This document shows positions 8,529 to 36,040 of a stretch of 64,000 nucleotides of DNA, one piece after another. Below the pieces are notes generated by a model that did no database searches, was not told the origin of the DNA, and was given only the letters and a program-made list of their open reading frames with translations. A program made the position numbers and the translations under genes. Numbering within the stretch: the first letter of the stretch is position 1; every line of letters begins with the position of its first letter. The DNA comes from Patescibacteria group bacterium (GTDB taxonomy: Bacteria; Acidobacteriota; Aminicenantia; UBA2199): positions 3,444 through 67,443 of the forward strand of contig DATKZA010000001.1 in the NCBI GenBank assembly GCA_035528155.1. Reading direction: 5' to 3'.

Positions 8529-9350
8529 TCACTTCGCGTACAGGACATCGGGGAAAAAGAGCGCGCTGCCGAACTTGTCCTTGCCAAAATCCCGGATGAT
8601 GGCCTGACCTTGCGGCGAACGGATGAATTCGGCGAAACGGGTGGCAAGTTTCACGTTCAGCCAAGGAAATTTCGCCGTTGAGACCACGATCACCGAATAG
8701 GGATTGAAAAGCTGCGCGTCGCCCTCGACCAGGACAGCCAGAACGTCGATCTCCTTGCGGTGGGCCAGCCAGGTGGCGCGGTCGACCAGGCAATAAGCGT
8801 TTTTTTCGTTGGCAATGCGCAGCGTTGCCTCCATGCCGCTGCCGCTCTCCATGTACCAGCGGCCGGCCGGATTGAGCCCGGCTTGCCCCCACAATTTCAA
8901 TTCCTTCTTGTGGGTGCCGGAATCGTCGCCGCGGGAAACAAAAGCGACGCATGCGGCGGCAATCTTGGCCATTGCCAACGCAACCGGAAGACCGCGGCTT
9001 CTCGCCGGATCGCTCGCCGGTCCGACCAGAACGAAATCGTTGTGCATCACGTCCAGTCTTTCGGCCCCGAATCCCTCGGCCACGAATTTCTCCTCGGCTT
9101 CGCGGTCATGGACCAGCAACACATCGGCATTGCCGTCGCGGGCCAGGCGCATGGCCTGGCCGGTGCCCACGGCAATGATCTTGACCGCGCAGTCGAATTT
9201 TTTTTCAAACGGCGGCATCAGGGCGTCAAAAAGGCCCGAATCAAGGGTCGAGGTGGTCGAGGCCAGGGTTAGCGTGTCACGGCCAGGCAGGGGCGGCGAA
9301 AAAACCAGGACCTGAAAACCCAGTGCCAAAGCCAGGCAAACTTTTTTCAC
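8529..9350 (-). CDS. tupA: tungstate ABC transporter substrate-binding protein (TupA-like)
   Basis: Signal peptide; STTSTLDSGLFDAL matches the TTTSTxDSGL motif of TupA/WtpA-type oxyanion-binding proteins. Confidence 0.75.
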   Translation of the reverse strand: MKKVCLALALGFQVLVFSPPLPGRDTLTLASTTSTLDSGLFDALMPPFEKKFDCAVKIIAVGTGQAMRLARDGNADVLLVHDREAEEKFVAEGFGAERLDVMHNDFVLVGPASDPARSRGLPVALAMAKIAAACVAFVSRGDDSGTHKKELKLWGQAGLNPAGRWYMESGSGMEATLRIANEKNAYCLVDRATWLAHRKEIDVLAVLVEGDAQLFNPYSVIVVSTAKFPWLNVKLATRFAEFIRSPQGQAIIRDFGKDKFGSALFFPDVLYAK

Positions 9351-9359
9351 TTCATCTCC

Positions 9360-9731
9360 TTAGTGCAGCCTTCCCTGAAAAGGATTCTCGCGCCGCCAGC
9401 CGGCCTGGCTGTCGTAGTGGACAAAAAAGATCCTGATATCAGCCTGGCTTTCATGTTCCACGAAAACTATTTTGACCACAGCCTGGCTCTCGTATTTGAC
9501 GTAGTGCCAGAATTCGTCGGCATCATTGGCCTGGCTTTCGTAGCGGACCAGGCGCACACACAGATCGGCTTGGCTTTCGTACTTGACCACAAAGACCTTG
9601 GCATCGGCCTGGCTTTCGTATTTCGCGACATAAACACTGCCGGCCGGCAGAACCGCAGTCGAGAGGATCACAAGCAGAAAAAGCAGCGGCCGGCGCTTGA
9701 TTCGACATAGCGCCGCCAGGGGGGATTTCAT
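9360..9731 (-). CDS. secreted tandem-repeat protein: six ~13-aa repeats containing K-Y-E-S-Q-A-D (unrecognised family)
   Basis: Signal-peptide-like N-terminus; repeats VYVAKYESQADAK, VFVVKYESQADLC, LVRYESQAND, YVKYESQAVVK, FVEHESQADIR, FVHYDSQAGWR; start overlaps purM stop (ATGA). Confidence 0.6.
   Translation of the reverse strand: MKSPLAALCRIKRRPLLFLLVILSTAVLPAGSVYVAKYESQADAKVFVVKYESQADLCVRLVRYESQANDADEFWHYVKYESQAVVKIVFVEHESQADIRIFFVHYDSQAGWRRENPFQGRLH
9403..9620. repeat. six degenerate 39-bp tandem DNA repeats with conserved 14-nt core GCCTGGCT(T)TCGTA
   Basis: Core found at 9403, 9442, 9481, 9529, 9568, 9607 (plus strand), spacing 39/39/48/39/39 bp; encodes the YESQA repeats on the minus strand. 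Confidence 0.8.
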
Positions 9732-10747
9732 TTGATGCGTACCCTTTCGCCGCCCTTGTTTTCGGTTACCTGACCGATCAGAAAAAATTCCTCATTGATT
9801 TTTTTAAGGGAAGCCTCAAGCGCGGAAAGGTTTCTGGGTTCGATGACCAGCACCATGCCGATACCCATGTTGAACACCCGGTAGCGTTCGGCTTGCGAAA
9901 TATTGCCGGCCTGGACCAGGAAAGAAAAAAGCGGCGGCACGGGCCATGTTTTTTCGATCACTACCGCAGTCGATTCGGGCAAAATGCGCGGGATGTTTTC
10001 TGGCAGCCCGCCACCGGTGATATGGGCCATGCCCTTGAGCAGCTTTTTTTCAAGCAGGGCTTGGACCGGCTTCAGGTAGGAGCGGTGCACGCGCAGCAAT
10101 TCCTCGCCTATGGGCGCGGCCAGCTCACTTACCGTGCTGCTGGTTTTCATATGAAGTTTTTCAAAAACGATATGGCGGGCCAGCGAGTAGCCATTTGTGT
10201 GCAGCCCGGTCGAGGGCAGGCCGACGAGCAGATCGCCTTTGCAGATGGTCTTGCCGTCCACCACGCTTTCCCGGCCGACAATACCGACGATGAAGCCGGC
10301 GATATCGTATTCGCCCTCCTGGTAAAACCCCGGCATTTCCGCCGTTTCACCACCGAGCAGGACCATTTCGTTTTCCAGGCAGCCATCCAGCACGCCGGAG
10401 ATGACCTCGCTGACGATTCCGGGCTCGACCCGCCCCGACGCCAGGTAATCCAGGAAAAACAGGGGCCGGGCCCCGGAAACCAGAATGTCGTTGACGCAGT
10501 GGTTGACCAGGTCGCAGCCGATCGTGTTGTGTATCCCGGTCAGGAAAGCGATCTTCAATTTGGTGCCCACGCCGTCAGCCGAAGAGACCAGGATCGGATT
10601 CTTGATGCCACCTTTCAAAGGGAAAAAACCGCCGAACTTGCCGATCTCCTGCACACCCAGGCGCTTGACCATGGATTTGATCCGATCGACCGCTTCATTG
10701 CCGCGATCGATGCTGACCCCGGCCTGCTCATAAGCACTTTTTTTCAT
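9728..10747 (-). CDS. purM: phosphoribosylformylglycinamidine cyclo-ligase (AIR synthetase)
   Basis: PurM-like sequence (VSSADGVGTKL, GGETAEMPG); GGGAGGAG RBS upstream of ATG. Confidence 0.9.
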   Translation of the reverse strand: MKKSAYEQAGVSIDRGNEAVDRIKSMVKRLGVQEIGKFGGFFPLKGGIKNPILVSSADGVGTKLKIAFLTGIHNTIGCDLVNHCVNDILVSGARPLFFLDYLASGRVEPGIVSEVISGVLDGCLENEMVLLGGETAEMPGFYQEGEYDIAGFIVGIVGRESVVDGKTICKGDLLVGLPSTGLHTNGYSLARHIVFEKLHMKTSSTVSELAAPIGEELLRVHRSYLKPVQALLEKKLLKGMAHITGGGLPENIPRILPESTAVVIEKTWPVPPLFSFLVQAGNISQAERYRVFNMGIGMVLVIEPRNLSALEASLKKINEEFFLIGQVTENKGGERVRIK

Positions 10748-22947: not shown

Positions 22948-23755
22948 GAAGCTCAGTGTCCGTTTCGGCAAGGTCCGGGCGGTCGACGACCTGAGCCTGG
23001 CCATTGATAAGGGTGAAAGCATCCTGCTGGCCGGAGCCAACGGTGCGGGAAAAACGACCTTGCTCAGGACCCTGGCAGGTGTACTGCGCGCCCGGCCGGG
23101 TTCCATCCGTTACGACGGCCGCAAGGCGGACCATCGCACCCGTAAAAAGATCGCCTATATCCCGGCTTCCATCAGCCTGTACGACGGCATGACCGTGAAG
23201 GAAGCGGCGCGAATGCACGCCCATTTCTATGGTCGATCCGCAGCCTGGACCATCAACGGACCGACGTTCCTCCCGGGTCAAAAAATCGCCTCGATGTCCA
23301 AGGGAGAAAAAACCATCTTCTTTCTTTCGCTGGCCCTGGGCGCTGTTCCTGAATACCTTTTCGTCGACGACGTGGTCCACTTTCTCGACCCCCATCTGCG
23401 GGAAGTTTTTCTAACCTCCATCCTGAGACTCATTGAGGAAAAACAGCTCACCGTGATCATGGCCTCGCAATCGGCTTTTGAAATCGAGGGCATTCCCGAA
23501 CGGGTCATGGTCATGGAAAAGGGTAAGGTCATCCTCGATGAAAACGTGGACATGCTGAAGCAAAAGTTCGTCAAATTCTACGGAGAAAGCATTCCCGGCG
23601 ATATCCCGGTCGTATTTTCCAGGCAATGGCAAAACGCCAAGGAAATGTATGTGTACCCCTACCAGCCGGAGCTCCACCGCCTTGACAGCGTCGAGCACTT
23701 GAGCCTGACGGAAATTTTAAGGGCCTTCATAGGAGGCGAATATGCTCGCCACTGA
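22928..23755 (+). CDS. ABC transporter ATP-binding protein
   Basis: Walker A GANGAGKTT; ABC signature region; overlaps sigma gene end by ~20 nt. Confidence 0.8.
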   Translation: MTMIAIEKLSVRFGKVRAVDDLSLAIDKGESILLAGANGAGKTTLLRTLAGVLRARPGSIRYDGRKADHRTRKKIAYIPASISLYDGMTVKEAARMHAHFYGRSAAWTINGPTFLPGQKIASMSKGEKTIFFLSLALGAVPEYLFVDDVVHFLDPHLREVFLTSILRLIEEKQLTVIMASQSAFEIEGIPERVMVMEKGKVILDENVDMLKQKFVKFYGESIPGDIPVVFSRQWQNAKEMYVYPYQPELHRLDSVEHLSLTEILRAFIGGEYARH

Positions 23756-25370
23756 AACCAAGCGCATTTTCAAGGACGGCGTGATCATTTTCATGGTTTT
23801 GGCCGCTATTTTTGCAGGCATCGTCGCCAGCGATCAAGATGTCTATCTGGCCCCGGCCCTGGAAATTTTCCTGCTGCTTTACGCCTCCTTCACGGGCTGG
23901 TCGATGTTCGAAAGGGAGCGGCAGGAAAACGCCGGCGAATACATGCTGTCGCTGCCGTTGTCCCGCAGCCGCCTGCTGCTGCTGAAATTCCTGCCGCGCC
24001 TGCTGAGTGTGTCACTGACTTTTTTGATCTACCTGCGCCTGCACCAGTCCTGGCAACTTCCATCCTTCCTTTCCCCATTCGATTTTTCCCTTTTATACGC
24101 CGGATTTTTTCTGCTTTCGATCGCCTTTTCCATAAGCTTCAAGAACTTCATCAGCGCTTTCTTCATCACCTGCCTGCTGTCGATCGGCCAGATCCTCCTG
24201 ATCAAACTCCTGGACAACAGCCGGGAGATCGGCCAGATCATCTTGCAGGCCAACTTGACCGTTTTGGTCTTCCCCCTCTTTTTCTTTTTTCTTTTTCAGC
24301 GCTATGACATCAAGCCGGTCTCAACCTTCAACAAAAAATTCTTTCCCGGCCTGTTGGCCGCGACCGGCCTGATCGCCGGCTTCATTTTTTACCAGGCTCC
24401 GGCCAACTGGAAGAATCTTACCCTCACCCCAACGGGACTGATCCTTAAAAATTCCTGCGTCCGCAGCGAAATCACCCTGGAGCGGGGACGGAAACGTATT
24501 CCGGGCTGCCTGACCATGCTGCGGGAAAGCGAGGACGGAAACACCCTGTATTGCATGACGCGAAAACTGGACGTCAATAGCCGCTGCATCGAAACGAGCA
24601 TTGTCGCACTCGACCTGAAAACAGGCGATTTGCAAACTCTTTACCGGATCCCGCCGGGCTGGACCATTTACGAAGGACATTACGGAGAATTCGGCAGCAT
24701 TCGCAACGGTACATATTCCCTTTTCCTGCAAAAACCGAAGTCAAAAAAAGCCATGATTCTCGAGATTGACGCCGGGAAAGTCAAGACATTTCCGATCAGG
24801 GGCGATTTTTACGATTCGCGGATCAGCTATGTTTTGCATTTGGCCGGCGAACCCCGTCAACTTGTCATTTTTAGCGAGCCGCGCCTTTACCGCCTGCATG
24901 TTTCCGGCCAGGTGGAAGAGCTCGCCAAGACAAATTCTCTGGACGTCTGGCAAGACAAAATTCTCCTGTTCGAATCCTCGGGTGTGAATCTCTACCGCGT
25001 CGGGGAACAACTGATCCCGCTGCTGCAAAGGAAGGGGAACTACAAAAAAAGCCCGCGCCGGCTCGGCGGCTACGAATCCCCTGGCGTGATTTATCGTACG
25101 GACCGCAGCTACTTCTGGCTGGACATGAAACAGCAGAAAGAGGAAAAATTGGAACTGAAATCTCCGCCATACACCTACCAGCAGAGCGGGGATCATTTCT
25201 ACGTGGTCTTTGTCAACGGCACCGTTTTCACCATCAGGGATATGCGGACCGGAAAGCAGAACGAGATGGTATGGGATCCCGGTTTCAAGCCTGCCGCCAT
25301 CCGCATCTCTCCTTTCGGGATGCTGGTCTTCAGGGATCAAAAATACAAGGTATATCCATTTAAAAATTAA
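23742..25370 (+). CDS. ABC-2-type permease with ~280-aa C-terminal extracytoplasmic domain
   Basis: Six predicted TM helices in the first ~260 aa, then a beta-rich soluble domain; overlaps ATPase stop. Confidence 0.6.
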   Translation: MLATETKRIFKDGVIIFMVLAAIFAGIVASDQDVYLAPALEIFLLLYASFTGWSMFERERQENAGEYMLSLPLSRSRLLLLKFLPRLLSVSLTFLIYLRLHQSWQLPSFLSPFDFSLLYAGFFLLSIAFSISFKNFISAFFITCLLSIGQILLIKLLDNSREIGQIILQANLTVLVFPLFFFFLFQRYDIKPVSTFNKKFFPGLLAATGLIAGFIFYQAPANWKNLTLTPTGLILKNSCVRSEITLERGRKRIPGCLTMLRESEDGNTLYCMTRKLDVNSRCIETSIVALDLKTGDLQTLYRIPPGWTIYEGHYGEFGSIRNGTYSLFLQKPKSKKAMILEIDAGKVKTFPIRGDFYDSRISYVLHLAGEPRQLVIFSEPRLYRLHVSGQVEELAKTNSLDVWQDKILLFESSGVNLYRVGEQLIPLLQRKGNYKKSPRRLGGYESPGVIYRTDRSYFWLDMKQQKEEKLELKSPPYTYQQSGDHFYVVFVNGTVFTIRDMRTGKQNEMVWDPGFKPAAIRISPFGMLVFRDQKYKVYPFKN

Positions 25371-25572
25371 ATAAATCACATTTTAGAAAAGGAGGCCGAA
25401 ATTGAACGGAACAGGTGCAGGCAAAAATAGCGCGGCTGCCGATAATGAAAAGACGTTGGCATTGGCAAAGCATCAGGTGATTTTTAAGATGTCCCGGAAA
25501 GCAATGTCATAGCCGAATCAGAGTAAAGAAATAAAATTGAAAATTAAATATTTTTTAAAAAAGGAGAAAGAA

Positions 25573-27393
25573 ATGAAAAGTGTTAAAGCGTTTTTGTTTG
25601 TCTTGCTGCTCATGCTGGCCTCGTGGGCCTGGTCGGCGGAAATCCACGATGCCGCGCTCAACGGCGACCTGGCCAAGGTCAAGGAACTGCTGGCCAAGAA
25701 CCCGGCGCTGCTTACGGCCGGAAATGACCTCGGCCGCACACCGCTGCATTTGGCCGCGCACCGCGGCCACGTAAAGCTGGCCGCCTGGCTGATCCAGCAG
25801 GGAGCCGACGTCAACGGCAGGGACAGCAGCTACCAGCTGGCCCCGCTGCACCTGGCTGCCTGGGGCGGCGATTTGGAAACCGTCCGCCTGCTGCTCAAGA
25901 AAGGCGCCGATCTGCAGGCCCGGGAAAAAGACAACGAAAACGCCCTTTACTACGCCGCGCTGAGCCCCAACCTGGAACTGGTCAAGTTCCTGGTGGCCAA
26001 GGGCCTGAAAGTCAGGGACACAGAAAGCTCGGCCGGCAACACGCCCCTTTCCATCGCCTTGCAACGGGGCAACCTGGCCATAGCCGAATATTTCCTGGCT
26101 GCGGGCGCCGACGCGCTGTGCAAGGACCGGGAGGGCAGCACCACCCTGCACATGGCCTGCATGCGGGGCAAACAAGCCCTGATTGAGCTCTTGCTCAGGA
26201 AGGGGGTCGCAATTGACGCCCGCGACAATGCAGGCTGGACACCGCTGCTGCTGGCCACGATATTCGGCAACCGCGAGGCGGTCAAAGTTCTCCTGGCGCA
26301 CGGAGCCGATTCCAACACCCGCAATCAAAACGGTCTTTTCCCGCTGCTCCAGGCCGCAAAAGACGGCGCCAGGGAGATCGCCTTGCTGCTGCTGGCTGCC
26401 GGGGCCAGGGCCGGGGATAGCATGGGTGATACCGGAATCGGCGCACTGCACATGGCCTGTGCCCTGGGCTACGGCGATATCGTCAAGGCCCTGCTGGACA
26501 AGGGGGCCGATGCCAACGCCAAAAGCAAGTGGGGCCATTCCCCTCATGGACTGGCCTACCGCTACGGCCACAAGAATATCGCCGAACTTTTGCTGAGCCG
26601 GGGCGCCACTGCAGAAAAGAGTTTGCCAGAGCCGGCCGGGCCCGAATGGCTGAAAAAGCAGTTGTCCGAAGGCGAAGCCCTGGTCTGGTACACGGACCAT
26701 TCGGGTTGGGCGGTCAAAACTGCCAAGCATTTGCTGGTCTTCGACTACTTCAAACCCGGCCCCGCGCCCGACCAGGCCGGGTTGGCCAACGGCACCCTCG
26801 TGCCTGCCGAGCTCAAGGAACAGGCAATGACCGTGTTCATCTCCCACGGCCACAACGACCACTACACACCGGCCTTGTTCGACTGGAAAAAAGAAATCAA
26901 AAACATCACTTACATCACCGGCTTCAAACTCGAAGGCAAAGAAGGTTATCAAATCCTTAGCGCCCATGAAAAACATGCCATGAACGGCATGGAGATCATC
27001 CCCATCGAATCCAACGACAGCGGCCAGGGTTATTTCATCAAGGTAGACGGGGTTTCCATTTTCCATCCCGGCGACCATGCCAACCGCCAGCGCGACTTCT
27101 CCGGTCCCTTCAAAAAGGAGATCGACTTCCTGGCCGACCAGAGCCTCAAGGCCGACATCCTGTTCGCGCCGGTCAGCGGCTGCGGTTTCGGCGACATCGT
27201 TGCTGTAAAAAAAGGCGACTATTACACCATGGATCGCCTGGCGGCCCGCCATGTGTTTCCCATGCATGCCGCCGGCAACCCGCTCCAATACCAGCTGTTC
27301 GCCAAGGAGGCCAAGGGCAGGGGCTATGAAAACGCGTTCCACTGCGCCGAATTCCCCGGCGATTGCTTTGCAGTAAAGCCTATTGGAAGATAG
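25573..27393 (+). CDS. secreted ankyrin-repeat protein fused to C-terminal metallo-beta-lactamase-fold domain (paralog 1)
   Basis: Signal peptide; ~9 ANK repeats (GRTPLHLAAHRGHVKLAAWLIQQGADVN...); C-terminal HxHxDH-like ISHGHNDHY and HPGDHANR; AAGGAG RBS. Confidence 0.75.
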   Translation: MKSVKAFLFVLLLMLASWAWSAEIHDAALNGDLAKVKELLAKNPALLTAGNDLGRTPLHLAAHRGHVKLAAWLIQQGADVNGRDSSYQLAPLHLAAWGGDLETVRLLLKKGADLQAREKDNENALYYAALSPNLELVKFLVAKGLKVRDTESSAGNTPLSIALQRGNLAIAEYFLAAGADALCKDREGSTTLHMACMRGKQALIELLLRKGVAIDARDNAGWTPLLLATIFGNREAVKVLLAHGADSNTRNQNGLFPLLQAAKDGAREIALLLLAAGARAGDSMGDTGIGALHMACALGYGDIVKALLDKGADANAKSKWGHSPHGLAYRYGHKNIAELLLSRGATAEKSLPEPAGPEWLKKQLSEGEALVWYTDHSGWAVKTAKHLLVFDYFKPGPAPDQAGLANGTLVPAELKEQAMTVFISHGHNDHYTPALFDWKKEIKNITYITGFKLEGKEGYQILSAHEKHAMNGMEIIPIESNDSGQGYFIKVDGVSIFHPGDHANRQRDFSGPFKKEIDFLADQSLKADILFAPVSGCGFGDIVAVKKGDYYTMDRLAARHVFPMHAAGNPLQYQLFAKEAKGRGYENAFHCAEFPGDCFAVKPIGR

Positions 27394-27402
27394 GAGAATA
27401 TT

Positions 27403-28944
27403 ATGTTAAATAAAATTATTTTTATTTTATTGGGAATTTATTTTAGTCAGGGGATTATGCCGGCGCAAACCGATAAGCAGGTGGATAGCATGGCATATAC
27501 CCTTGGGTTTTCTACTTATCTTTCACACACCGACAAATATGCTGCTGGTTTTGATATCTATACCGATAGTGATGGATACACCTATGTTTCAGGGAATACC
27601 AGAGATAAAAATTTTCCAACTACAGAAGGAGCGCTTCAAAGAGAGCTCAAGGGAGAAGCGGACGCTTTTGTGGCAAAATTTACGCCGGATGGTAAAATTG
27701 TATTTGCAACCTTAATAGGCGGTACAAAAAGAGAACATCATACAGCCTTAACAGTTGATAAGGATGGGTATATCTATTTGACGGGAGGCACCCATTCTGT
27801 TGATTTTCCTGTAACCCCCGGAGCATACGATACCAGTTTTAACGGAGAAGGTGAATGGGCCGGCGACGTTTACCTTGTAAAAATAAACCCAACCGCAAGT
27901 GCTATTGTTTTCTCAACATTTATTGGTGGAAAAGTGGAGGAAACAGTAAGTGCCGGGAATATTAAGATTGACTCCAAAGGAAATATCCTTATCGCCGGGG
28001 TCACATGTTCACAAGACTTTCCATCCACAAAAGGGGTTATCGACAATAAATTTACGAAGAATGATTCCTTCCTGTCCAAATTCAGCCCCAATGGCGATAA
28101 ACTATTGCTCTCTACTTCTCTGGGAAACGGGGTAATGGAAATGATTACTGGTCTGGCTGTTGATAACAAGGATAGTATTTATGTAACCGGTTTTACCGTT
28201 ACCCCATATCTTCCGGTAACCAAAAATGCCATTCGAAAAAATATGATTAAACCCAAGGTAGGCGGATATGAGGACGGAATTGATCACTTCATAGCCAAAG
28301 TCAATGAAACGGGCACAAAGCTTCTGTATTTAAGTTATTTTGGTGCCGGAGGCCATATGGGCTCTACTCTTTCCTGGGCTGCTCCAAACAGGTTGGTGGC
28401 GTGCGGCAGCACGAAGGAGGATGGGTTTCCAATCACCGAAAATGCACTGGGCAATATAAGGAGAGGAGAAAGGGATTGCTTTATATCGGTTTTTAATTCC
28501 GATGACATGACACTGGAATATTCCACCCTGTTTGGAGGAAGTGAATCCGATAGTATTACAACCGTATCATTTCTCAACAAAGATACGATCATCATTGGGG
28601 GAACAACAATCTCTCCGAATTTTCCGCTTACTAAGAATGCCCTGTTTTCAGAATTCCCTGTTTTGGAAAAGACATTTAACAATACTTTTTTTGGTCGCAG
28701 GAAATCCTTTATTTCCGTGATTGACATCAAGAACAGCAAACTTCTTTATTCGACCTATTTAGGCGGTTGTTTCCGGTTTCAAATTCACGCAGACAAAATT
28801 GGAAATGTTAGTTTTATTGCAGAAGCAGGGCAGCGCGAAGCTGCCGGAATGACGGGTTTCCCTATTACCGAGAATGCTCTTGAGGAACCACCAACCTATA
28901 TCATGCTGGGACGATTGGTATTAAATAATTTTACTAAACAATAA
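27403..28944 (+). CDS. SBBP beta-propeller repeat protein (secreted, AT-rich gene)
   Basis: Repeated motif ...STFIGG...D.G.GIAVD..GNIYVTG.T.S.DFP.T.GA; marked drop in GC and different codon usage versus flanks. Confidence 0.7.
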   Translation: MLNKIIFILLGIYFSQGIMPAQTDKQVDSMAYTLGFSTYLSHTDKYAAGFDIYTDSDGYTYVSGNTRDKNFPTTEGALQRELKGEADAFVAKFTPDGKIVFATLIGGTKREHHTALTVDKDGYIYLTGGTHSVDFPVTPGAYDTSFNGEGEWAGDVYLVKINPTASAIVFSTFIGGKVEETVSAGNIKIDSKGNILIAGVTCSQDFPSTKGVIDNKFTKNDSFLSKFSPNGDKLLLSTSLGNGVMEMITGLAVDNKDSIYVTGFTVTPYLPVTKNAIRKNMIKPKVGGYEDGIDHFIAKVNETGTKLLYLSYFGAGGHMGSTLSWAAPNRLVACGSTKEDGFPITENALGNIRRGERDCFISVFNSDDMTLEYSTLFGGSESDSITTVSFLNKDTIIIGGTTISPNFPLTKNALFSEFPVLEKTFNNTFFGRRKSFISVIDIKNSKLLYSTYLGGCFRFQIHADKIGNVSFIAEAGQREAAGMTGFPITENALEEPPTYIMLGRLVLNNFTKQ

Positions 28945-28972
28945 TAAATATGCACTAAGATAAGGAGAATTT

Positions 28973-30745
28973 ATGAAACACAACAAAGTATTACTGTTTT
29001 GCCTGCTGCTTTTGTTGGCCATATGGGCTTGGGGCGCCGAAATCCATGACGCCGCGCTCAAGGGCGACCTGGCTCAGGTCAAGGAGCTGCTGGCCAGGGA
29101 TCCCTCGTTGATCAACGCCAAAGGCCATAACGAAAAAGCGCCGCTTCATTGGGCCACCCAGGGCGGGCACATCTCCATCGTGAAGTACCTGCTCTCCCGC
29201 GGCGCGGCCGTCGACGACCTGAACATCCAGAAGGAGACGGCGCTGGTCTACGCCGCCGAGGGCGGCCACCTGAAGCTGGCGGAACTGCTCATCGCCAAGG
29301 GGGCCGATCCCAACGTCCGGACCACACTGAAGGTCTCGCCCATCCACTACGCGATTTGGGCGGGCAAAACCGACATGGTCAAGCTGCTGCTGAAGAAGGG
29401 CGCTGACTACAAGTGGGACCGCGGGACAGGATTCACTCTGCTCCACGAGGCGGCCAACCAGGAATCAACGGAAATCGTCGATATTCTGTTGAAAAAGGGG
29501 TTGGCGGTGGATCTGAAGACCCGGTTCGGCGCCACGCCCCTGCATTACGCTTCCTTGCACGGCACCCCGGAGATCGTCTCCTTGCTGATCAAAAAAGGCG
29601 CCGATGTCAACGCCGTTAGCGAGAACGGTTGGTGGCCGCTGGGTCTGGCGGTCAGCAAGGGGAAAGTGCAAATCGCGGCGCTTCTGCTCGCAGCCGGCGC
29701 CCAGGTGAATCGCCAGGACAAGGAAAGCCGGCTCACATCCCTGCATGTGGCCGCCGCCAAGGGCTACGGAAAAACCTGCGCCCTGCTGCTCGAAAATGGG
29801 GCCGACGCCAACTCCCCGGACAAAGACGGCAGGACCCCCTTGTACTATGCCGATCGCTATCAACAAAAGGGGATATCGGCTCTGCTCAAGAGCAAGGGCG
29901 CCAAGCCGGTCGAGAGGGAAAAGCTTTCCGTTCGCCCCTGGCTGACGGAACCCCTGGCCGACGGCCAGGCCGTGGTCTGGTATCTGGGCCATTCGGGCTG
30001 GGCGGTAAAGACCCGGAATCATTTGTTGATTTTTGATTATTGGAAACAGGATGCCGCCCCCGACGAGCCCGGACTGGCCAACGGTTCCATCAATCCGTCG
30101 GAACTTCAGGATATGAACGTGACCGTGTTCGCCTCCCATGCCCATGGCGATCACTATATGCCGAAGATATTCGAATGGCGGAAAACAATACCCAAGATCA
30201 CCTATATCATGGGCTTTAAGCCCGAGAAGGCCGAAGGGTATACGCTGCTGCCCAACCGGGAGAAAAAGCTGATCGGCGGCATGGAGGTCACGGCCATCGA
30301 GTCCAACGACAGCGGCCAGGGATTTTTCGTCAAGGTGGACGGCATTGCCATCTTCCATCCCGGCGATCACGCCAATCGCAAGCGCGATTTTTCCGGGCCG
30401 TTCAAAAAAGAGATCGATTTCCTGGCCGACCAGGGGCTCAGGGCCGATATCCTGTTCGTGCCGGTGAGCGGCTGCGGCTTCGGCGATATCGTCAGCGTCA
30501 AGAAAGGAGTCTATTATACAATCGACCGGTTGGCGGCCCGCTCCGTTTTCCCCATGCATGCCGGCGGAAACGAAACACGTTATCGGGAATTTGCCAAGGA
30601 AGCCAAAAACGCCGCTTATGATGTTCCTTTTTGCCTGCCCGAATTCAGCGGCGACCACTTCATCATCACTCCAGAGGGAGTCAAAGGTGCGTTTGACCAA
30701 GCGACCGCATGTAAAAAGAACGAAAAAAGCGGCTGCAACCGCTAG
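28973..30745 (+). CDS. secreted ankyrin-repeat protein fused to C-terminal metallo-beta-lactamase-fold domain (paralog 2)
   Basis: Collinear with 25573-27393; signal peptide, ANK repeats, ASHAHGDHY/HPGDHANR; C-terminal domain ~85% identical to paralog 1. Confidence 0.75.
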   Translation: MKHNKVLLFCLLLLLAIWAWGAEIHDAALKGDLAQVKELLARDPSLINAKGHNEKAPLHWATQGGHISIVKYLLSRGAAVDDLNIQKETALVYAAEGGHLKLAELLIAKGADPNVRTTLKVSPIHYAIWAGKTDMVKLLLKKGADYKWDRGTGFTLLHEAANQESTEIVDILLKKGLAVDLKTRFGATPLHYASLHGTPEIVSLLIKKGADVNAVSENGWWPLGLAVSKGKVQIAALLLAAGAQVNRQDKESRLTSLHVAAAKGYGKTCALLLENGADANSPDKDGRTPLYYADRYQQKGISALLKSKGAKPVEREKLSVRPWLTEPLADGQAVVWYLGHSGWAVKTRNHLLIFDYWKQDAAPDEPGLANGSINPSELQDMNVTVFASHAHGDHYMPKIFEWRKTIPKITYIMGFKPEKAEGYTLLPNREKKLIGGMEVTAIESNDSGQGFFVKVDGIAIFHPGDHANRKRDFSGPFKKEIDFLADQGLRADILFVPVSGCGFGDIVSVKKGVYYTIDRLAARSVFPMHAGGNETRYREFAKEAKNAAYDVPFCLPEFSGDHFIITPEGVKGAFDQATACKKNEKSGCNR

Positions 30746-30756
30746 TGGAATTTCTG

Positions 30757-30779
30757 CCGGGGGGAGGAAATCCCCCCGG
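30757..30779 (+). terminator. GC hairpin CCGGGGGGA-GGAAA-TCCCCCCGG after ank-MBL paralog 2
   Basis: 9-bp perfect stem 12 nt after the stop codon; weak T-tract (CCCGTTTCATTG); second small hairpin TGTCCGC-TTG-CGGACA at 30791-30807. Confidence 0.5.
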
Positions 30780-30959
30780 CCCGTTTCATTGTCCGCTTGC
30801 GGACAGTAGTGTGCAAAAATGGACAGAATAAAATCTCTCGGGCGCAAGCAGAAGCAGGAATGTGCAGGGTCCTACCTGTGTTATTTTTCAAATCGCTCTC
30901 GTTTCCAGAAATTGGCACCATTCCTGCTCTGTAATTTTGAAACAAATTAGGAGAATGTA

Positions 30960-33182
30960 ATGATGAATTTCCAAAAAATTCTTTTGACAATGCTGATATT
31001 GATCCTCCCCTGCCTGGCCGGACAGGCGGCAGAACAAAGGATCGGAGAGAACGTGGTGCTGCGCCCGCGGATGACGAGCCAGCCGCCGAAAATCGACGGC
31101 ATCCTTGACGATCCGGCCTGGAGCAGCGGGCCCATTGTCCATGAACCATTCATCACCAACAACCCGGTTTACGGAACCCCGCTGCCGGAAAAAACCGAAG
31201 TGTGGCTGACCTATGATCCCGACAATCTCTATTTCGCATTTTACTGCCATGATGACCCCAAGAAAATCAAAGGCACGCTGACCAAGCGCGACAATATTTT
31301 TTCAGAAGACTGGATCGATGTCGATATCGATGCCATGGGCAACCGCCAATTTACTCTTGAAAACGCCTGCAATCCCCTCGGCGTCCAGGGCGACCTGATC
31401 AACTCGGCCTCCAGCGGCGAAAGCGCCGATCCGGACTGGGTTTGGTACAGTGCCGGCCGTGTCGTGACCGACGGCTATATCGTGGAAATGCGCATACCAT
31501 TGAAAAGCATAAAATTTAAAAGCGGGGAAAACGTGACCATGCACATGGGTTTTTACCGCAATCAAAGTCATTCCGGCACCAACTCCTCCTGGCCGCAGAT
31601 CGACCAGAAGATCGGCTATTTCAATTCCCTGACGCCGGTGGTGTTTGACAAGCTGAACAACCAGCTGCGGCTGGAAGCCCTGCCGTCTGTGACCTACGGC
31701 GGCATCTGGGACCGGCAATCTCCCGAAAAATGGTCCGCTGCCGATGATTCGACCCAACTCGGCATAGGGATAAAGTATGGCATCACCTCATCGGTGAATG
31801 CCGAATTGACCGTCAATCCCGACTTCAGCCAGGTGGAAAGCGACCAATTCCAGGTGGTGGCCAACCAGCGCTATCCGATCTTCTACAGTGAAAAACGGCC
31901 GTTTTTCATGGACATCAACAACCAATTCAATTTGGCCGGCACCAACGGCCCGACCAACATGATCACCGCCGTGCATACCCGCAACATCGTGGATCCGTCC
32001 TGGGGAGGGAAGCTGAGCGGAGAATTGAACAGGTTCTCATTCGGCGTTCTCACTGCCGGCGATGAATGGCCCGGGCGGTCGTTCGCCGATTTTCAAAGTC
32101 CCTTCCCGAATCAAAACGCCAATTCTTTCATCGGCCGCATGAAGTACAGCATGAAAGGCGAGGATTATTTCGGACTGCTTTACAGCGGCAGGGAGTTCGG
32201 CAACAGTTTTAACCGGGTTTTGGCCGGGGATCTGCGTTTGCGGCTGCAAGGCGGCCACAGTATCAGTGTCAACGGTCTCTATACCTTTTCCCGGGAGGCG
32301 GATGCCCCGGAAAAATACGCTGGCGACGCATTTACCGTCCAGTATGAATATGCGCAAAAGCCATTGACCATGTTATTTCTCCTGGAGGGGTACAGCCGGA
32401 ATTTCCGCATGGATTCGGCCTTTTATCTGCAGAACGGCATCACCAAGTTCACCGGCTATATTGCCCCCAACTATTACCCGCGGACGGGAAATGGATTGGG
32501 GATCACCCGGGTGACCCCCATGCTGTATGGATATTATTCCCACAACCGTTTTTCCGGTTTGGACGATATATTTATGCAGCCGGCCATACGCTTCAGCCTT
32601 ACCCGGAACAGTTACCTTGAATTGGATTATACCTATTCCAGGGAAGGCTGGCTGGACAAGATGTACAACCAAAGTTTGCTGGAAGCCTATTGGGCTTCCA
32701 GACCGGCCCGTTGGCTGAACCTGCACGGTTCGGTCAGCTACGGCACCGCCCTGCGCTATGATTTCGTCGATCCTTTCCTGGGGAAAAAAATCAATTTCCA
32801 CATCGGGGCCCAGTTCCAGCCCAACGACCGTATTTCCCAGACTTTCGAATATACCTACCAGGATTTTCATCGCCATGGCGACAGCGAACATGTCTTCGAC
32901 CTGAACATCCTGGTGTCCCGCACCACCTACCAGTTCAACAAATCCCTGTTTGTGCGGGCATTGGTCCAGTACGACAGCTATTCAAAAAAAGTGATCACCG
33001 ATCTGCTGGCTTCGTTCACCCTGATCCCCGGTACCGTGCTTTATGTGGGCTATGGTTCCTTGTACAGGGAACAATACTGGGATGAAGCCAATGCCGCCTG
33101 GAAACGCCAGCCCGGTCCGGGCAGCTATTACCAGACCACCCAAAGTGTTTTTATCAAAGCCAGTTACCTGTGGAGGTTTTAA
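30960..33182 (+). CDS. DUF5916/CBM9-like domain outer-membrane protein (putative beta-barrel)
   Basis: Signal peptide; N-terminal KIDGILDDPAWSSGP...DNLYFAFYCHD resembles CBM9-like DUF5916; C-terminus ends in aromatic residue (WRF); AGGAG RBS. Confidence 0.6.
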   Translation: MMNFQKILLTMLILILPCLAGQAAEQRIGENVVLRPRMTSQPPKIDGILDDPAWSSGPIVHEPFITNNPVYGTPLPEKTEVWLTYDPDNLYFAFYCHDDPKKIKGTLTKRDNIFSEDWIDVDIDAMGNRQFTLENACNPLGVQGDLINSASSGESADPDWVWYSAGRVVTDGYIVEMRIPLKSIKFKSGENVTMHMGFYRNQSHSGTNSSWPQIDQKIGYFNSLTPVVFDKLNNQLRLEALPSVTYGGIWDRQSPEKWSAADDSTQLGIGIKYGITSSVNAELTVNPDFSQVESDQFQVVANQRYPIFYSEKRPFFMDINNQFNLAGTNGPTNMITAVHTRNIVDPSWGGKLSGELNRFSFGVLTAGDEWPGRSFADFQSPFPNQNANSFIGRMKYSMKGEDYFGLLYSGREFGNSFNRVLAGDLRLRLQGGHSISVNGLYTFSREADAPEKYAGDAFTVQYEYAQKPLTMLFLLEGYSRNFRMDSAFYLQNGITKFTGYIAPNYYPRTGNGLGITRVTPMLYGYYSHNRFSGLDDIFMQPAIRFSLTRNSYLELDYTYSREGWLDKMYNQSLLEAYWASRPARWLNLHGSVSYGTALRYDFVDPFLGKKINFHIGAQFQPNDRISQTFEYTYQDFHRHGDSEHVFDLNILVSRTTYQFNKSLFVRALVQYDSYSKKVITDLLASFTLIPGTVLYVGYGSLYREQYWDEANAAWKRQPGPGSYYQTTQSVFIKASYLWRF

Positions 33183-33212
33183 TCAACAGCAAAGGAAACA
33201 AAGAGGCGCACA

Positions 33213-33854
33213 ATGAATTTATTTAAAAAAATGCTTTTTCTCTTGCTCGTACTAATCTGTTTTGGCTGGGGTGATGCCAAGGAGCAGCCGGGCGTACTGA
33301 CGCCGGAGAACGCCAACGAGGCCAGATTGAACCGCCTGCAGCCGCCGGAAAAAGTGCTGGACGCCATCGGCGTTCGCCCCGGCATGGCGGTGGCGGAGAT
33401 CGGCGCCGGCCGCGGCCGCTACGCAGTGCAGCTGGCGGTACGGGTGGGGCCAGGCGGCAGGGTGTATGCCGAGGACATCAACGCGGCTGCGCTGGATCAC
33501 CTGCAGAAGCGCTGTCGGCGCTGGAAGCTGGAAAACGTCGAGGTCATCCTCGGGGATGTGACTGACCCCAAGCTGCCGCCCGAGCAGCTGGACCTGATAT
33601 GGATCGTCTCCTCCTATCATCACTTTGACGATCCGGTCGCTCTTCTGCGCCGGGCGCGAAAAGCATTGAAGCCCGGCGGCCGTTTGGCGATCGGAGAATG
33701 GATCTCGATCAACGAAGTCGGCCGGCACGGCACGACCTCCGAAAACATCGTCAAGCAGATGGAGACCGCCGGCTATGCCCTGGAGCGCATCGAAACGTTT
33801 CTCAAAGAGAATAATTTTCTCATTTACCTGTTTCGCCTGGACGGGGGCCGCTGA
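33213..33854 (+). CDS. class I SAM-dependent methyltransferase-fold protein with N-terminal signal/anchor (paralog 1)
   Basis: Motif I VAEIGAGRGRY, acidic motif II YAEDIN; hydrophobic N-terminus LFLLLVLICFGWG. Confidence 0.65.
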   Translation: MNLFKKMLFLLLVLICFGWGDAKEQPGVLTPENANEARLNRLQPPEKVLDAIGVRPGMAVAEIGAGRGRYAVQLAVRVGPGGRVYAEDINAAALDHLQKRCRRWKLENVEVILGDVTDPKLPPEQLDLIWIVSSYHHFDDPVALLRRARKALKPGGRLAIGEWISINEVGRHGTTSENIVKQMETAGYALERIETFLKENNFLIYLFRLDGGR

Positions 33855-33911
33855 TCGAAAAACAAACTTTTCTGATTGGCTGCAAGGACAAGGACCGTAT
33901 CAAGGAGCAAG

Positions 33912-35318
33912 ATGAACAATCAGGGATATGACGAAAACCGGGCAAAGCCCAAACCGATCCAAAACCACGGCGCCGTAGCCAACGGTCTAAAGCGGGAATT
34001 GGGGCTGTTTTCCCTGACCAATATCGTCATCGCCAACATGATCGGCGCCGGCGCCCTGACCCTGGGGGGTTTTCTGCTGGTGAAATTGCAGAACCCGCTG
34101 CTGATGATGGTTTTGTGGTTCATCGGGGGCCTGGGGGCGCTATGCGGCGCCATCTGTTATGGACAGCTCGGCGCCACGTTTCCGCTGGCCGGAGGTGAGT
34201 ACGCTTTTCTTTCCAGGCTGTTTCATCCGCTGGCCGGATTTTTAAGCGGCTGGATATCCTTTTTTGTAGGTTTCTCGGCGCCGATCGCCGCGGCGGCACT
34301 CGCTTTCGTCGAATACATGGCGCGGGCGTTTCCTTCCATGCTAAACATCGGCATATTCACGGGGCCCGACGCCGGGTTCATCCTGAAAAAATTTTACGCC
34401 ATGGCCGTCATCATCATATTCACCCTGGTGCACCGCCGCGGCGTACGCCTGGGCGCCGGCATCCAAAACGGGCTCACGGTCGTCAAGATTGCCGGGATCA
34501 TCCTGTTCGTTGCCGCCGGGTTTGCCTTCGGGAGAGGAGATCTTGCAAATCTCTTCCAGGGCCGCAGGCTCAACTTCGATTTTGGGCAATGCAAGAGCAT
34601 AGGTCTATCATTCCTGTGGATCATGTTTGCCTATTGCGGCTGGAACGCATCCGCTTATGTCGGATCGGAAGCACGAACCCCGAGAAAAAACCTGCCGCGC
34701 TCGCTCATGCTGGGAACGGCCGCGGTCATGCTCCTCTACCTGGCGCTCAATTTGCTCTATATTTATGCCATTCCCATCGCTGAGGTCACCGCTACCGCGT
34801 CGATTGCCGGCCAGGCGGCGGCAAAATTATTCGGGCGCTCAATGGAGCAAATCGTTTCCGTTTTCATTGCCTTCGCCCTTTTCTCTTCATTGAGCGCCTA
34901 TATCATGCTTGGGCCAAGGGTCTATTTCTCCATGGCCCAGGATGGCCTCTTTTTCCGTTTTGCCGCCCAGGTCCATCCGCGCTTCAAGGTGCCTTCAAAA
35001 TCGATCCTGTTCCAGGGACTGATCGCCGCCGCCATGGTGTGGATCGGCACTTTCGATCAGCTGCTGACCTACCTCGGTTTTGCCCTCGGCCTTTTCCCGA
35101 TCCTGGCGGTCATCGGCGTATTCAAATTACGAAAGCGGCAAATGGCGGCAGGCAAAATTATCGGCTTTCCGATAACGCCGATCTTTTTTATCATGACAAG
35201 TGTCCTGATGCTCGTTTTTTCCTTTCTCGAACGTCCGCATGAATCACTGATCGCGATCTTGACCCTGCTTCTGGGCATTCCGCTTTATTTTCTTGTTTTC
35301 AAGGGGAAGAAAAAATGA
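33912..35318 (+). CDS. APC-family amino-acid permease
   Basis: ~12 TM helices, APC-like N-terminal region; AAGGAG RBS 6 nt before ATG 33912 (listed ORF begins at TTG 33876). Confidence 0.75.
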   Translation: MNNQGYDENRAKPKPIQNHGAVANGLKRELGLFSLTNIVIANMIGAGALTLGGFLLVKLQNPLLMMVLWFIGGLGALCGAICYGQLGATFPLAGGEYAFLSRLFHPLAGFLSGWISFFVGFSAPIAAAALAFVEYMARAFPSMLNIGIFTGPDAGFILKKFYAMAVIIIFTLVHRRGVRLGAGIQNGLTVVKIAGIILFVAAGFAFGRGDLANLFQGRRLNFDFGQCKSIGLSFLWIMFAYCGWNASAYVGSEARTPRKNLPRSLMLGTAAVMLLYLALNLLYIYAIPIAEVTATASIAGQAAAKLFGRSMEQIVSVFIAFALFSSLSAYIMLGPRVYFSMAQDGLFFRFAAQVHPRFKVPSKSILFQGLIAAAMVWIGTFDQLLTYLGFALGLFPILAVIGVFKLRKRQMAAGKIIGFPITPIFFIMTSVLMLVFSFLERPHESLIAILTLLLGIPLYFLVFKGKKK

Positions 35319-35968
35319 AAGCCTGTAAAAAAGTAGTTCTGTTGATTTTTTCCATTGTTTGGATGATGGCAATCGCCGGAAAGGATTCAGCCAATTATGG
35401 AGAGAGCTGGGAGAAGAGAGCCAACGATCGGCAGCCGCCAGAACAGGTTATGAGTGCCATCGGCCTCAAACCGGGAATGGTCATTGGTGAAGTCGGTGCC
35501 GGCCGCGGGCGCTACACGGTCCATTTGGCTCGCCGGGTCGGCGAAAAAGGCAAGGTCTTCGCAAACGACATCGATGCCGGCGCCCTGGCTTATTTGGATG
35601 AACGCCTCAAGCGGAATCATATCGACAATGTGGAAACGATTCTTGGCCGGGAAGACGATCCGCTTTTTCCGAAAGGTTCCCTGGACATGGTCATCATGGT
35701 CTGGGTTTTTCATCATTTGGACCAGCCGGTCGCTTTGCTGAAAAATCTCATCCCCAGTCTGAAACCTGGAGCTCCGGTCGTTATTCTCGATCCCGATCCG
35801 GAACGAGAAGGCGAGCTGGATTCAAAACGGCCGTCAAGCAGAAAAAGTCTGGAAAAAGAAGCCCGCGCCGCCGGATTCAAACTTGTCCGCGTGGAAACAT
35901 TCCTGCCTCGGGATCTCATTTTCATTCTGAGCTTGCCGGCAGCCGGGAATTTCCAAGATTGGCGCTGA
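35315..35968 (+). CDS. class I SAM-dependent methyltransferase-fold protein with N-terminal signal/anchor (paralog 2)
   Basis: VGEVGAGRGRYTVHLA, FANDID; start overlaps permease stop (ATGA). Confidence 0.65.
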   Translation: MKACKKVVLLIFSIVWMMAIAGKDSANYGESWEKRANDRQPPEQVMSAIGLKPGMVIGEVGAGRGRYTVHLARRVGEKGKVFANDIDAGALAYLDERLKRNHIDNVETILGREDDPLFPKGSLDMVIMVWVFHHLDQPVALLKNLIPSLKPGAPVVILDPDPEREGELDSKRPSSRKSLEKEARAAGFKLVRVETFLPRDLIFILSLPAAGNFQDWR

Positions 35969-36040
35969 GAAAAATATTGCAAAAATTAAACTGCGAATCC
36001 ATGAATTCAAGACAAAAAATACCGCACGGTTCACGCCCGC

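Follow-up and report, generated by a model that had tools for sequence, protein, structure and literature searches.

A low-GC SBBP propeller gene from uncultured Aminicenantia: a probable horizontally exchanged accessory gene at a fixed slot of a variable island

The 64,000-nucleotide stretch analyzed here (contig DATKZA010000001.1 of GenBank assembly GCA_035528155.1; hereafter the window, or W in comparisons) contains one gene, open reading frame (ORF) 27403-28944, that is strikingly poorer in GC than everything around it. It encodes a protein with SBBP-type β-propeller repeats (hereafter the SBBP gene) and lies between two paralogs, ank1 and ank2, that code for proteins combining ankyrin repeats with a metallo-β-lactamase (MBL) fold. 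An earlier note on this DNA took the gene for a probable horizontal acquisition inserted precisely between the two paralogs, and the locus thus raises the question of whether a compositional outlier of this kind is the scar of a single insertion or has some other history. The anomaly in composition is genuine and pronounced, and there is good support for horizontal exchange. The gene comes across as an accessory cassette that recombines at a constant position, and a single insertion from a low-GC donor that could be named does not describe it. We consider it probable, although far from settled, that SBBP is a horizontally moved accessory gene at a fixed position of a variable island, that it is AT-rich by virtue of coming from a low-GC pool, and that its alleles are swapped by recombination in the flanks.

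The contrast in composition holds by every measure used. In a sliding window, the GC fraction is 0.375 to 0.44 inside the SBBP gene and 0.55 to 0.65 in the flanking genes. Counted per gene, SBBP has a GC of 0.412 and a GC at third codon positions (GC3) of 0.381, versus averages of 0.551 (standard deviation [SD], 0.041) and 0.669 (SD, 0.070), respectively, for the 55 long ORFs of the window (greedy set); it is the sole long ORF with a GC3 below 0.5, 4.1 SD under the mean. Its codon usage match, calculated in the style of the codon adaptation index, is 0.480, compared to 0.677 ± 0.047 for the other genes (z = −4.2), which puts it at the bottom of 46 genes, and its dinucleotide signature distance δ* is 167, versus 65 ± 22 (maximum, 134) for other 1.5-kb windows. 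The low GC content and the use of AT-ending codons, both judged by eye in the earlier note, were thus borne out by the sliding-GC and codon adaptation checks that it had proposed, and both composition and codon usage lie beyond the host range, as is typical of horizontally acquired island genes. A purely functional origin of the low GC, from amino acid composition and constraint unrelated to history, has some initial appeal, as the protein is rich in N, I, F, Y, T, and G and poor in A, R, and L relative to other window proteins, with a GC at first codon positions of 0.447 versus ~0.58. However, recoding the same protein with the host codon usage gives a GC of 0.521 and a GC3 of 0.684, so that codon choice accounts for roughly 11 of the 14 GC points that are missing, and the amino acid content for only 3 or so. 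In addition, orthologues with 67 to 72% identical proteins attain GC3 values of 0.72 to 0.84, which leaves this explanation very improbable.

The product matches its earlier description as a protein with SBBP-type propeller repeats and a signal or anchor. Pfam detects the SBBP domain (PF06739) at residues 36 to 72 with 44.7 bits (cutoff, 20.5), a single repeat being picked up by the model. An AlphaFold2 model based on 27 homologues (predicted local distance difference test score, 84.5; predicted template modeling [TM] score, 0.85) contains 28 or 29 strands, consistent with seven four-stranded blades, and an N-terminal hydrophobic helix (residues 2 to 17); the top Foldseek matches of this model are all propellers. 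With the repeat above threshold and a propeller fold of four-stranded blades, the protein belongs with the SBBP propeller proteins on both counts, and the model describes it as a predicted Sec-type exported seven-bladed β-propeller. The ratio of nonsynonymous to synonymous substitutions relative to its relatives (dN/dS, 0.19 to 0.28) indicates that the gene is functional and under purifying selection. The family has more than 5,000 members, the top 120 of which are 63 to 97% identical over the full length; they come from Bacteroidota, Cloacimonadota, Acidobacteriota/Aminicenantes, Zixibacteria, and other lineages, and many of them carry a C-terminal DUF3471 domain.

The closest public genome to the window is GCA_004525465.1 (labeled Chrysiogenales at NCBI; the ENA record of the same species is Aminicenantia_UBA2199_sp004525465), and the other syntenic relatives are labeled “Candidatus Aminicenantes”; the window genome is an uncultured member of Aminicenantia, UBA2199-like. 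Given an uncultured source, and with Bacteroidota contigs as the closest compositional matches, the AT-rich stretch might be suspected to be a chimera of metagenome assembly, in which a piece of Bacteroidota DNA was spliced into a contig of Aminicenantia. Against this, the identical gene in the identical context is found on 8 contigs from independent samples and assemblers (ENA, JGI, and Logan), the same junction occurs in another species (L094/L006), and the tightly packed reading frames have host-type Shine-Dalgarno motifs. The probability of such an artifact is accordingly negligible.

Close relatives were picked by the ABC-2 permease encoded just upstream of the island, blind to their SBBP status. 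This permease has only 72 homologues among 5.8 billion proteins and is a lineage-specific marker; its C-terminal part of ~330 amino acids (gene at 23742-25370) has no Pfam match past residue ~146. Since four of the contigs used, L012 (CAVOXU010000008.1), L095, L096, and L013, are derived from long-read metagenome-assembled genomes (MAGs) with frameshifts that split the permease and ank-MBL genes and make gene calls untrustworthy, tblastn-anchored comparisons were employed. In six relatives (L009, L012, L013, L029, L031, and L092), the gene order is GntR, ECF sigma factor, ABC ATPase, ABC-2 permease, SBBP, zero to three optional genes, the second ank-MBL gene, methyltransferase, and amino acid permease. 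The SBBP proteins of these genomes are 63 to 82% identical to that of the window, and in each of them the gene is GC-poorer than its neighbors: its GC3 is 0.42 next to ~0.75 in L009, 0.39 next to ~0.69 in L012, 0.43 next to 0.81 to 0.85 in L092, 0.52 next to ~0.8 in L013, 0.54 next to ~0.82 in L031, and 0.84 next to ~0.95 in L029. Two other relatives with the gene in the same slot, L094 and L098, have SBBP GC3 values of 0.39 and 0.45. Orthologous genes of the same composition, the observation named in the earlier note as one that would speak against acquisition, do therefore exist (in L094, L009, L012, L092, and L098). Because these orthologues share both the slot and the AT-richness, there was no recent private insertion from a low-GC donor, and the AT-richness appears, from these comparisons, to be an old, shared property of the same-slot alleles. 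What stands of the proposed horizontal acquisition is the foreign composition, the tree conflict, the empty sites (see below), and a family that is compositionally at home only in low-GC phyla.

The picture of a gene inserted between two paralogs is also incomplete, in that distant relatives have the order permease-SBBP-ank2 without any upstream paralog, and it is ank1 that behaves as a patchy element. It is found only in W, L094/L006, L095, and L096 and is absent from L012, L013, L029, L031, L009, L092, and L097. As ank1 is about equally far from all single-copy ank2 orthologues (49 to 55% amino acid identity over the full length and 62 to 65% in the MBL domain), it is an old paralog. Orthologues of ank2 (65 to 86% amino acid identity) follow SBBP in L094, L012, L013, L029, L031, and L009. 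Both flanking genes are confirmed as ank-MBL paralogs by Pfam, and SBBP does lie between them; they are, however, diverged paralogs rather than near-identical direct repeats, with 46 to 84% nucleotide identity per 150-nucleotide window and one 295-nucleotide stretch at 82%.

A gene that at least 9 diverged relatives carry at this same position and that is always GC-poorer than its flanks could also be an old, vertically inherited resident that was lost in some relatives and in which AT-richness is actively maintained by a gene-specific force. Candidate forces are selection on codons or nucleotides (for example, because a secreted propeller has to be translated or folded slowly or because an AT-seeking regulator binds) and weaker GC-biased gene conversion on an accessory gene. 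We judge this combination of old residence and such a force to be unlikely; the evidence on both of its sides comes from the distribution of the gene, from the trees, and from the course of its composition over time.

With regard to distribution, SBBP lies in a hypervariable island bounded by the permease gene and ftsZ. The eight genomes compared (the window counted) have seven gene contents here, set between flanks that are collinear at 88 to 92% nucleotide identity. The genes that are individually present or absent in it include ank1, SBBP, two PD40 propeller genes (PD40a and PD40b), a PF00144 serine hydrolase gene, DUF5916, methyltransferase genes, and an amino acid permease gene. SBBP is found in five of the eight closely related genomes, the window included, and is missing from three; among the permease-chosen relatives together with W, it is present in W, L094, L012, and L098 and absent from L095, L096, and L097. 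In L094 (permease identity, 92%), the permease gene is followed by ank1, SBBP, PD40a, PD40b, MT', and ank2, and in L098 (72%) by SBBP and further genes. In L095 (82%) and L096 (69%), it is followed by ank1, ank2, DUF5916, and further genes, and in L097 (85%) by a single ank gene and then a methyltransferase gene. L095 and L096 hence offer empty sites, in line with the suggestion of the earlier note to look for genomes in which the two ank-MBL genes are adjacent. The junction at which ank1 abuts ank2 reads gaagTAGGAGAATAAAATG in L096, with TAGGAGAAT occurring once, and TAAaaaTAGGAGATTAAAATG in L095, where the genes abut with TAGGAGATT. The Shine-Dalgarno motif TAGGAGA(A/T)T, which brackets SBBP in the window, is thus present in a single copy between the abutting paralogs. 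Patchy presence combined with an identifiable empty site is what is seen with genes of genomic islands.

The third SBBP-less genome, L097, shows how the gene can be lost. Its single ank gene is preceded by the promoter region of ank1 and is of the ank1 type for the first ~140 nucleotides (90%), after which comes the body of ank2 (91%). Such a chimera is the product expected from recombination between ank1 and ank2, and paralog recombination therefore does delete the SBBP interval, as an old resident lost in some relatives would require. A similar layout is seen in all three SBBP-less genomes in the second (L095:13680-15450 and L096:13615-15386) or only (L097:11831-13601) ank gene, in which the first ~140 to 150 nucleotides are ank1-like (85 to 91% identical to window ank1) and the body is ank2-like (up to 91 to 95% in L095 and L097). 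On the other side, the neighboring accessory genes ank1 and DUF5916 are equally variable in their presence and yet are GC-rich, which is not easily reconciled with an AT-enriching force acting on accessory genes.

The trees speak for exchange. A host tree was built from the GntR, sigma factor, ATPase, and permease genes of the upstream flank; it has the form (((W,L094),L095),L012), with bootstrap values of 99 at the two outer nodes and 60 for (W,L094), and also contains (L092,L031) at 100, joined by L029, and (L013,L096) at 90. In the SBBP tree, L012 pairs with L092 (100) and this pair is joined by L013, W pairs with L094 (100) and this pair is joined by L009 at 92 to 98, and L098 pairs with L031 at 99 to 100. 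L012 thus groups with L092 for SBBP (100) and with W, L094, and L095 for the flanking genes (99), a clear incongruence. From this conflict it follows that the slot is occupied by a different allele lineage in each of the close hosts W, L012, and L098. The same story is told by synonymous divergence (dS): between L012 and L092 it is 0.25 for SBBP, 0.39 for the adjacent PF00144 gene, and 1.14 for the adjacent permease gene, and between W and L006 it is 0.05 for SBBP, 0.22 for ftsZ, 0.68 for ank1, and 0.44 for ank2. An old vertical resident would have difficulty in accounting for conflicts with bootstrap values of 98 to 100 and for an SBBP dS that is 4- to 5-fold below that of adjacent genes in both pairs.

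SBBP is not alone in its low divergence between W and L006. The methyltransferase gene at 35315-35968 of the window has a dS of 0.05 from its counterpart in L006 (positions 9272-9925; GCA_004525465), versus 0.35 to 0.90 for its neighbors and 0.22 for ftsZ, and the window species and GCA_004525465 therefore share a mosaic of recently exchanged segments.

The composition of the family across its hosts bears on where the AT-richness comes from. In a survey of 51 loci from named genomes, SBBP genes of more than 30 low-GC hosts (GC, 0.31 to 0.40) have a GC of 0.34 to 0.39, matching the host, whereas those of GC-rich hosts are 4 to 14 points below the host. The nearest copies from low-GC hosts, in a Bacteroidales MAG and a metagenome contig, have a GC3 of 0.25 in a background of 0.33 to 0.35 GC. 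The other AT-rich genes of Aminicenantia islands are PF00144 (GC3, 0.48 to 0.52) and PD40a and PD40b (0.32 and 0.49 in L094). The closest homologues from low-GC phyla are 60 to 80% identical for SBBP, 59 to 67% for PF00144, and 60 to 63% for PD40b but only 22 to 30% for the ank-MBL proteins; this split in homology supports movement of the AT-rich genes across phyla into a resident ank-MBL module.

Transfer need not have been one-way. The SBBP gene of Bacteroidetes bacterium GWF2_33_16 (L015:10001-11533; host GC, 0.32; gene GC3, 0.25) falls inside the GC-rich Aminicenantia-type clade as the sister of L030 (bootstrap, 100), and its placement suggests probable transfer in the opposite direction, too.

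The persistence of AT-richness can be followed by back-calculation with a two-state relaxation of GC3 toward the host value. This gives a GC3 of ~0.23 at the W/L009 split and of ~0.26 to 0.31 at the L012/L092 split, both made plausible by the values of 0.19 to 0.34 in present-day copies from low-GC hosts and compatible with the gene having entered fairly recently from a low-GC pool. For the W/L012 split (dS of 0.83, a value shared by ank2 and the methyltransferase), the result is −0.04, an impossible value, and the W and L012 alleles cannot both have stayed in GC-rich hosts since they split. The same result can be turned in favor of vertical residence with active maintenance, as neutral relaxation since the W/L012 island split cannot produce the present composition. 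A universal need for AT-rich codons is nonetheless contradicted by the GC3 of 0.62 to 0.84 that SBBP reaches in L021, L024, L027, and L029.

The explanation that we regard as probable can then be put as follows. Aminicenantia lineages would swap different SBBP alleles at one chromosomal slot, and the genes for the PF00144 serine hydrolase and the PD40 propellers, which are just as AT-rich, would often move along with them. The exchange would proceed by homologous recombination through the conserved flanks, i.e., the permease gene and the ank-MBL genes, and recombination between the two ank-MBL paralogs would also remove SBBP. The AT-richness would be the composition of a low-GC gene pool, surviving since allele turnover outpaces amelioration. 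Composition, fold, synteny, presence and absence, tree conflict, and junction sequences are observed here; the mechanism of recombination, the direction of the most recent event, and the origin in a low-GC pool are inferred.

Several observations weigh against this explanation. The window allele is nested among the alleles of GC-rich, Aminicenantia-type hosts, outside any Bacteroidota clade; the nearest copy from a low-GC host is 79 to 80% identical, with a placement bootstrap of only 10 to 48, and a search for the donor lineage found none among the compared alleles, i.e., no clade of a donor within which the gene is nested. All trees are neighbor-joining trees on simple distances rather than maximum-likelihood trees. 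The three allele lineages in UBA2199-like hosts all have a GC3 of 0.38 to 0.45, and such a convergence within one host group, which favors vertical residence, could reflect a local AT-ward force instead. On the W and L094 branches, there are 6 AT-to-GC and 6 GC-to-AT synonymous changes, while relaxation toward the host GC3 should have made ~78% of them AT to GC (P = 0.03 with only 12 changes), again as expected of a maintained resident; polarized synonymous counts flip with the GC of the outgroup (a parsimony artifact of parallel changes), and only the W/L094 comparison with the like-composed outgroup L009 was usable. Members of the same clade are fully GC-rich (GC3, 0.72 to 0.74 in L021 and L024 and 0.84 in L029). 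Furthermore, SBBP followed by ank2 is common in distant relatives, which may mean that SBBP is ancestral at this slot and was lost in L095, L096, and L097. Finally, the blocks of reduced identity next to SBBP (see below) are ~80% identical to every relative and could be the result of locally fast evolution instead of imported DNA.

The coordinates of the features discussed here are collected in Table 1.

Table 1. Features of the SBBP locus in window coordinates
Feature	Coordinates	Strand	Description
Hypervariable island	25371..36040	+	Between ABC-2 permease gene and ftsZ; contains SBBP
Promoter-like site	25462..25490	+	AT-rich intergenic region upstream of ank1; consensus scan 9/12, pattern match only
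ank1	25573..27393 (start 25537 or 25573)	+	Ankyrin plus Lactamase_B_3 MBL fold, signal peptide (Pfam)
3' half of ank1	26490..27393	+	W versus L095, 69-89% here and 83-94% in the 5' half
Left junction	27391..27402	+	TAGGAGAATATT (then ATG); ank1 stop codon overlaps SBBP Shine-Dalgarno sequence
SBBP gene	27403..28944	+	513 amino acids, predicted exported seven-bladed β-propeller; probable horizontally exchanged accessory gene; starts ATGTTAAATAAAATTATTTTTATTTTATTG
Right junction	28945..28972	+	28-bp spacer ending TAAGGAGAATTT (then ATG), the ank2 Shine-Dalgarno sequence
ank2	28973..30745	+	Ankyrin plus Lactamase_B_3 MBL fold, signal peptide (Pfam); conserved SBBP partner in this lineage
Diverged 5' part of ank2	28973..29340	+	First ~370 nucleotides; W versus L095, 66-83% here and 91-94% from 29340 onward
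Terminator-like GC-rich hairpin	30756..30780	+	11 nucleotides past ank2 stop; ten pairs, nine of them G-C; weak T-run after

The spacers of 9 and 28 bp reported earlier are exact, with the ank1 stop at 27391-27393, the SBBP start at 27403, the SBBP stop at 28942-28944, and the ank2 start at 28973. The left junction is identical in L094; L096, with its empty site, has this motif as TAGGAGAATAAAATG, from where the sequence runs straight into the second ank-MBL gene. On the right, A(A/G)ATAAGGAG precedes ank2 in L094, L012, L009, and L031, whichever gene comes before it. The window ank2 starts with MKHNKVLL, the type found downstream of SBBP in these same four genomes, unlike the second ank gene of L095 and L096, which has an ank1-like start. 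Identity between W and L095 is 83 to 95% outside positions 26490-27390 and 28973-29340; the latter segment is ~80% identical to every relative, and the remainder of ank2 is 91% identical to L095 and L097. Between W and L094, identity is 91 to 100% over 27090-28890 (97 to 100% across 27390-28590) and ~80% in the body of ank1, so that the last ~300 nucleotides of ank1 are near-identical to L094 together with SBBP. From the alignments, these blocks of reduced identity beside SBBP fit possible import or export of the gene through homologous recombination in which the ank genes served as crossover sites. Of the two candidates for the most recent event, we moderately favor a gain in the W/L094 lineage over a loss in L095, L096, and L097.

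The tight spacers, the promoter-like site, and the hairpin, which is the strongest such site within 21.5 to 36.2 kb of the window, suggest that ank1, SBBP, and ank2 form one presumed transcription unit.

Classical mobility machinery was looked for and not found. There are no tRNA genes in the 64 kb, Rfam gave no match and no regulatory RNA landmark, the Pfam domains of the island genes include no integrase, transposase, or recombinase, and PADLOC reported nothing beyond generic ankyrin matches. The SBBP locus accordingly has none of the hallmarks of a classical mobile element (integrase or transposase, tRNA target, terminal repeats, or attC). A plasmid or phage vehicle was considered and dropped: no close SBBP homologue was found on plasmids, which encode only distant SBBP proteins (at most 31% identity), and none at all on phages. 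An 18-nucleotide imperfect inverted repeat (16 of 18 positions complementary) at 27404-27421 and 28923-28940 was likewise rejected as a mobile element end, being AT-only, of low complexity, and within the coding sequence; its 3' arm is not kept in L094 or L009, and the repeat is probably due to chance.

The company that SBBP keeps is conserved well beyond Aminicenantia. In the Cloacimonadota MAG L022, an SBBP-DUF3471 gene is followed by genes for an ank-MBL protein, an FGE-sulfatase-like protein, a PF00144 serine hydrolase, two PD40 propellers, and Kelch and FG-GAP proteins, and L066 has SBBP with PF00144, ankyrin, MBL, and α/β-hydrolase genes behind a LytTR two-component system. In at least 16 loci, the gene that comes right after SBBP encodes a PF00144 protein (59 to 67% identity). 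This adjacency of SBBP to a class C β-lactamase-like gene recurs in many phyla (L015:10001-12759, L036, L066, and at least 13 more), and in L066 a DUF3471 domain is also fused to a PF00144 hydrolase. Within the island, class I S-adenosylmethionine (SAM)-dependent methyltransferases (window 33213-33854, L094:17263-17961, and L009:3316-3948) have an N-terminal hydrophobic, signal-peptide-like segment (MNLFKKMLFLLLVLICFGWG…), which is odd for SAM-using enzymes; these methyltransferase genes sit among genes for secreted proteins.

About 130 positions are invariant in the SBBP family, including HTD (residues 42 to 44), REHH (110 to 113), and DH (294 and 295), and in the alignment these residues hint at a possible defined binding or catalytic site. 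The most likely role of SBBP is that of an extracytoplasmic ligand-binding or catalytic subunit that partners the neighboring secreted hydrolase-like proteins. A literature search on DUF3471 and on the SBBP propeller family found nothing. A role in antiphage defense was considered and set aside, as neither SBBP nor the PD40 proteins nor the serine hydrolase had a PADLOC match, and the ank-MBL matches were to generic ankyrin. Structure does not allow a function to be transferred either, the best match, the CylK propeller, being too distant with a TM score of 0.60 and 18 to 19% identity.

At its simplest, SBBP is a clear, ordinary, and well-documented case of gene transfer, in which a compositional outlier marks an accessory gene in a variable island. 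It also exposes an uncharacterized, very widespread, and unusually conserved family of secreted propellers (60 to 80% identity across phyla), whose cross-phylum neighborhood with PF00144, PD40, and ankyrin-MBL proteins is a possible biochemical target, and the persistence of AT-richness over several allele lineages and hosts provides a natural test of the rate of amelioration against gene turnover. A more far-reaching and tentative idea, which we would not call probable, sees in SBBP, PF00144, and the PD40 propellers a pool of AT-rich cassette genes shared across phyla. These genes would plug into one fixed slot of a secreted, ank-MBL-centered module by recombination in the flanks and keep their composition in GC-rich hosts through fast turnover or selected AT-richness (e.g., an AT-seeking silencer). 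If so, composition would be a lasting trait of the pool itself instead of the fading scar of one transfer.

Comparison with known systems places the protein and its slot in context. The best relative with a solved structure is the propeller of CylK (PDB 7RON and 7FH6), the Friedel-Crafts alkylating enzyme of cylindrocyclophane biosynthesis, which matches query residues 80 to 266 by sequence profile (E = 6e-15) and the fold by Foldseek (E = 1e-18 to 3e-19); both proteins are SBBP-like seven-bladed propellers. CylK is larger, with ~650 to 690 residues; the match is to its C-terminal half (chain residues 334 to 518), and the preceding CylK region has no counterpart in the window protein, in which the signal peptide comes directly before blade 1. 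The two-domain architecture of CylK is therefore not found here. Nor are the genes next to SBBP biosynthetic, and because its genomic context is not a natural-product cluster, a shared chemistry with CylK cannot be inferred. The LipL53-family SBBP lipoproteins of Leptospira (NCBIfam NF047494) are likewise SBBP-repeat propellers with an N-terminal export signal. The match to their profile is partial, 52.8 bits versus the equivalog cutoff of 400, which places the window protein outside the family, and, unlike in these lipoproteins, its signal region has no lipobox cysteine (MLNKIIFILLGIYFSQGIMPAQT). Much closer, at 60 to 82% full-length identity, is the uncharacterized family annotated as “DUF3471 domain-containing” or “hypothetical” in Bacteroidales, Cloacimonadota (“Ca. 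Tenebribacter”), Acidobacteriota, and Aminicenantes MAGs, which has PF00144 serine hydrolases, PD40 propellers, and ank-MBL proteins as common conserved neighbors. Most copies from low-GC phyla have a C-terminal DUF3471 domain and a PF00144 gene directly downstream, and the window copy has neither.

The slot itself is reminiscent of the enterobacterial O-antigen loci (between galF and gnd) and the pneumococcal capsule loci (between dexB and aliA), low-GC clusters that are exchanged between conserved flanks without mobility genes. As a comparison from general knowledge, the SBBP slot resembles them in its fixed chromosomal position with conserved flanks as possible recombination arms, in its many alternative contents, in alleles that conflict with the core genome, in its persistently low GC, and in the absence of an integrase or transposase. 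It differs in that the unit is a single gene or a cassette of 1 to 4 genes for secreted propellers and a serine hydrolase instead of a glycan synthesis cluster, that one of its flanks is a paralog pair able to recombine and delete the cassette, and that SBBP exchange, unlike that of the O-antigen and capsule loci, spans phyla.

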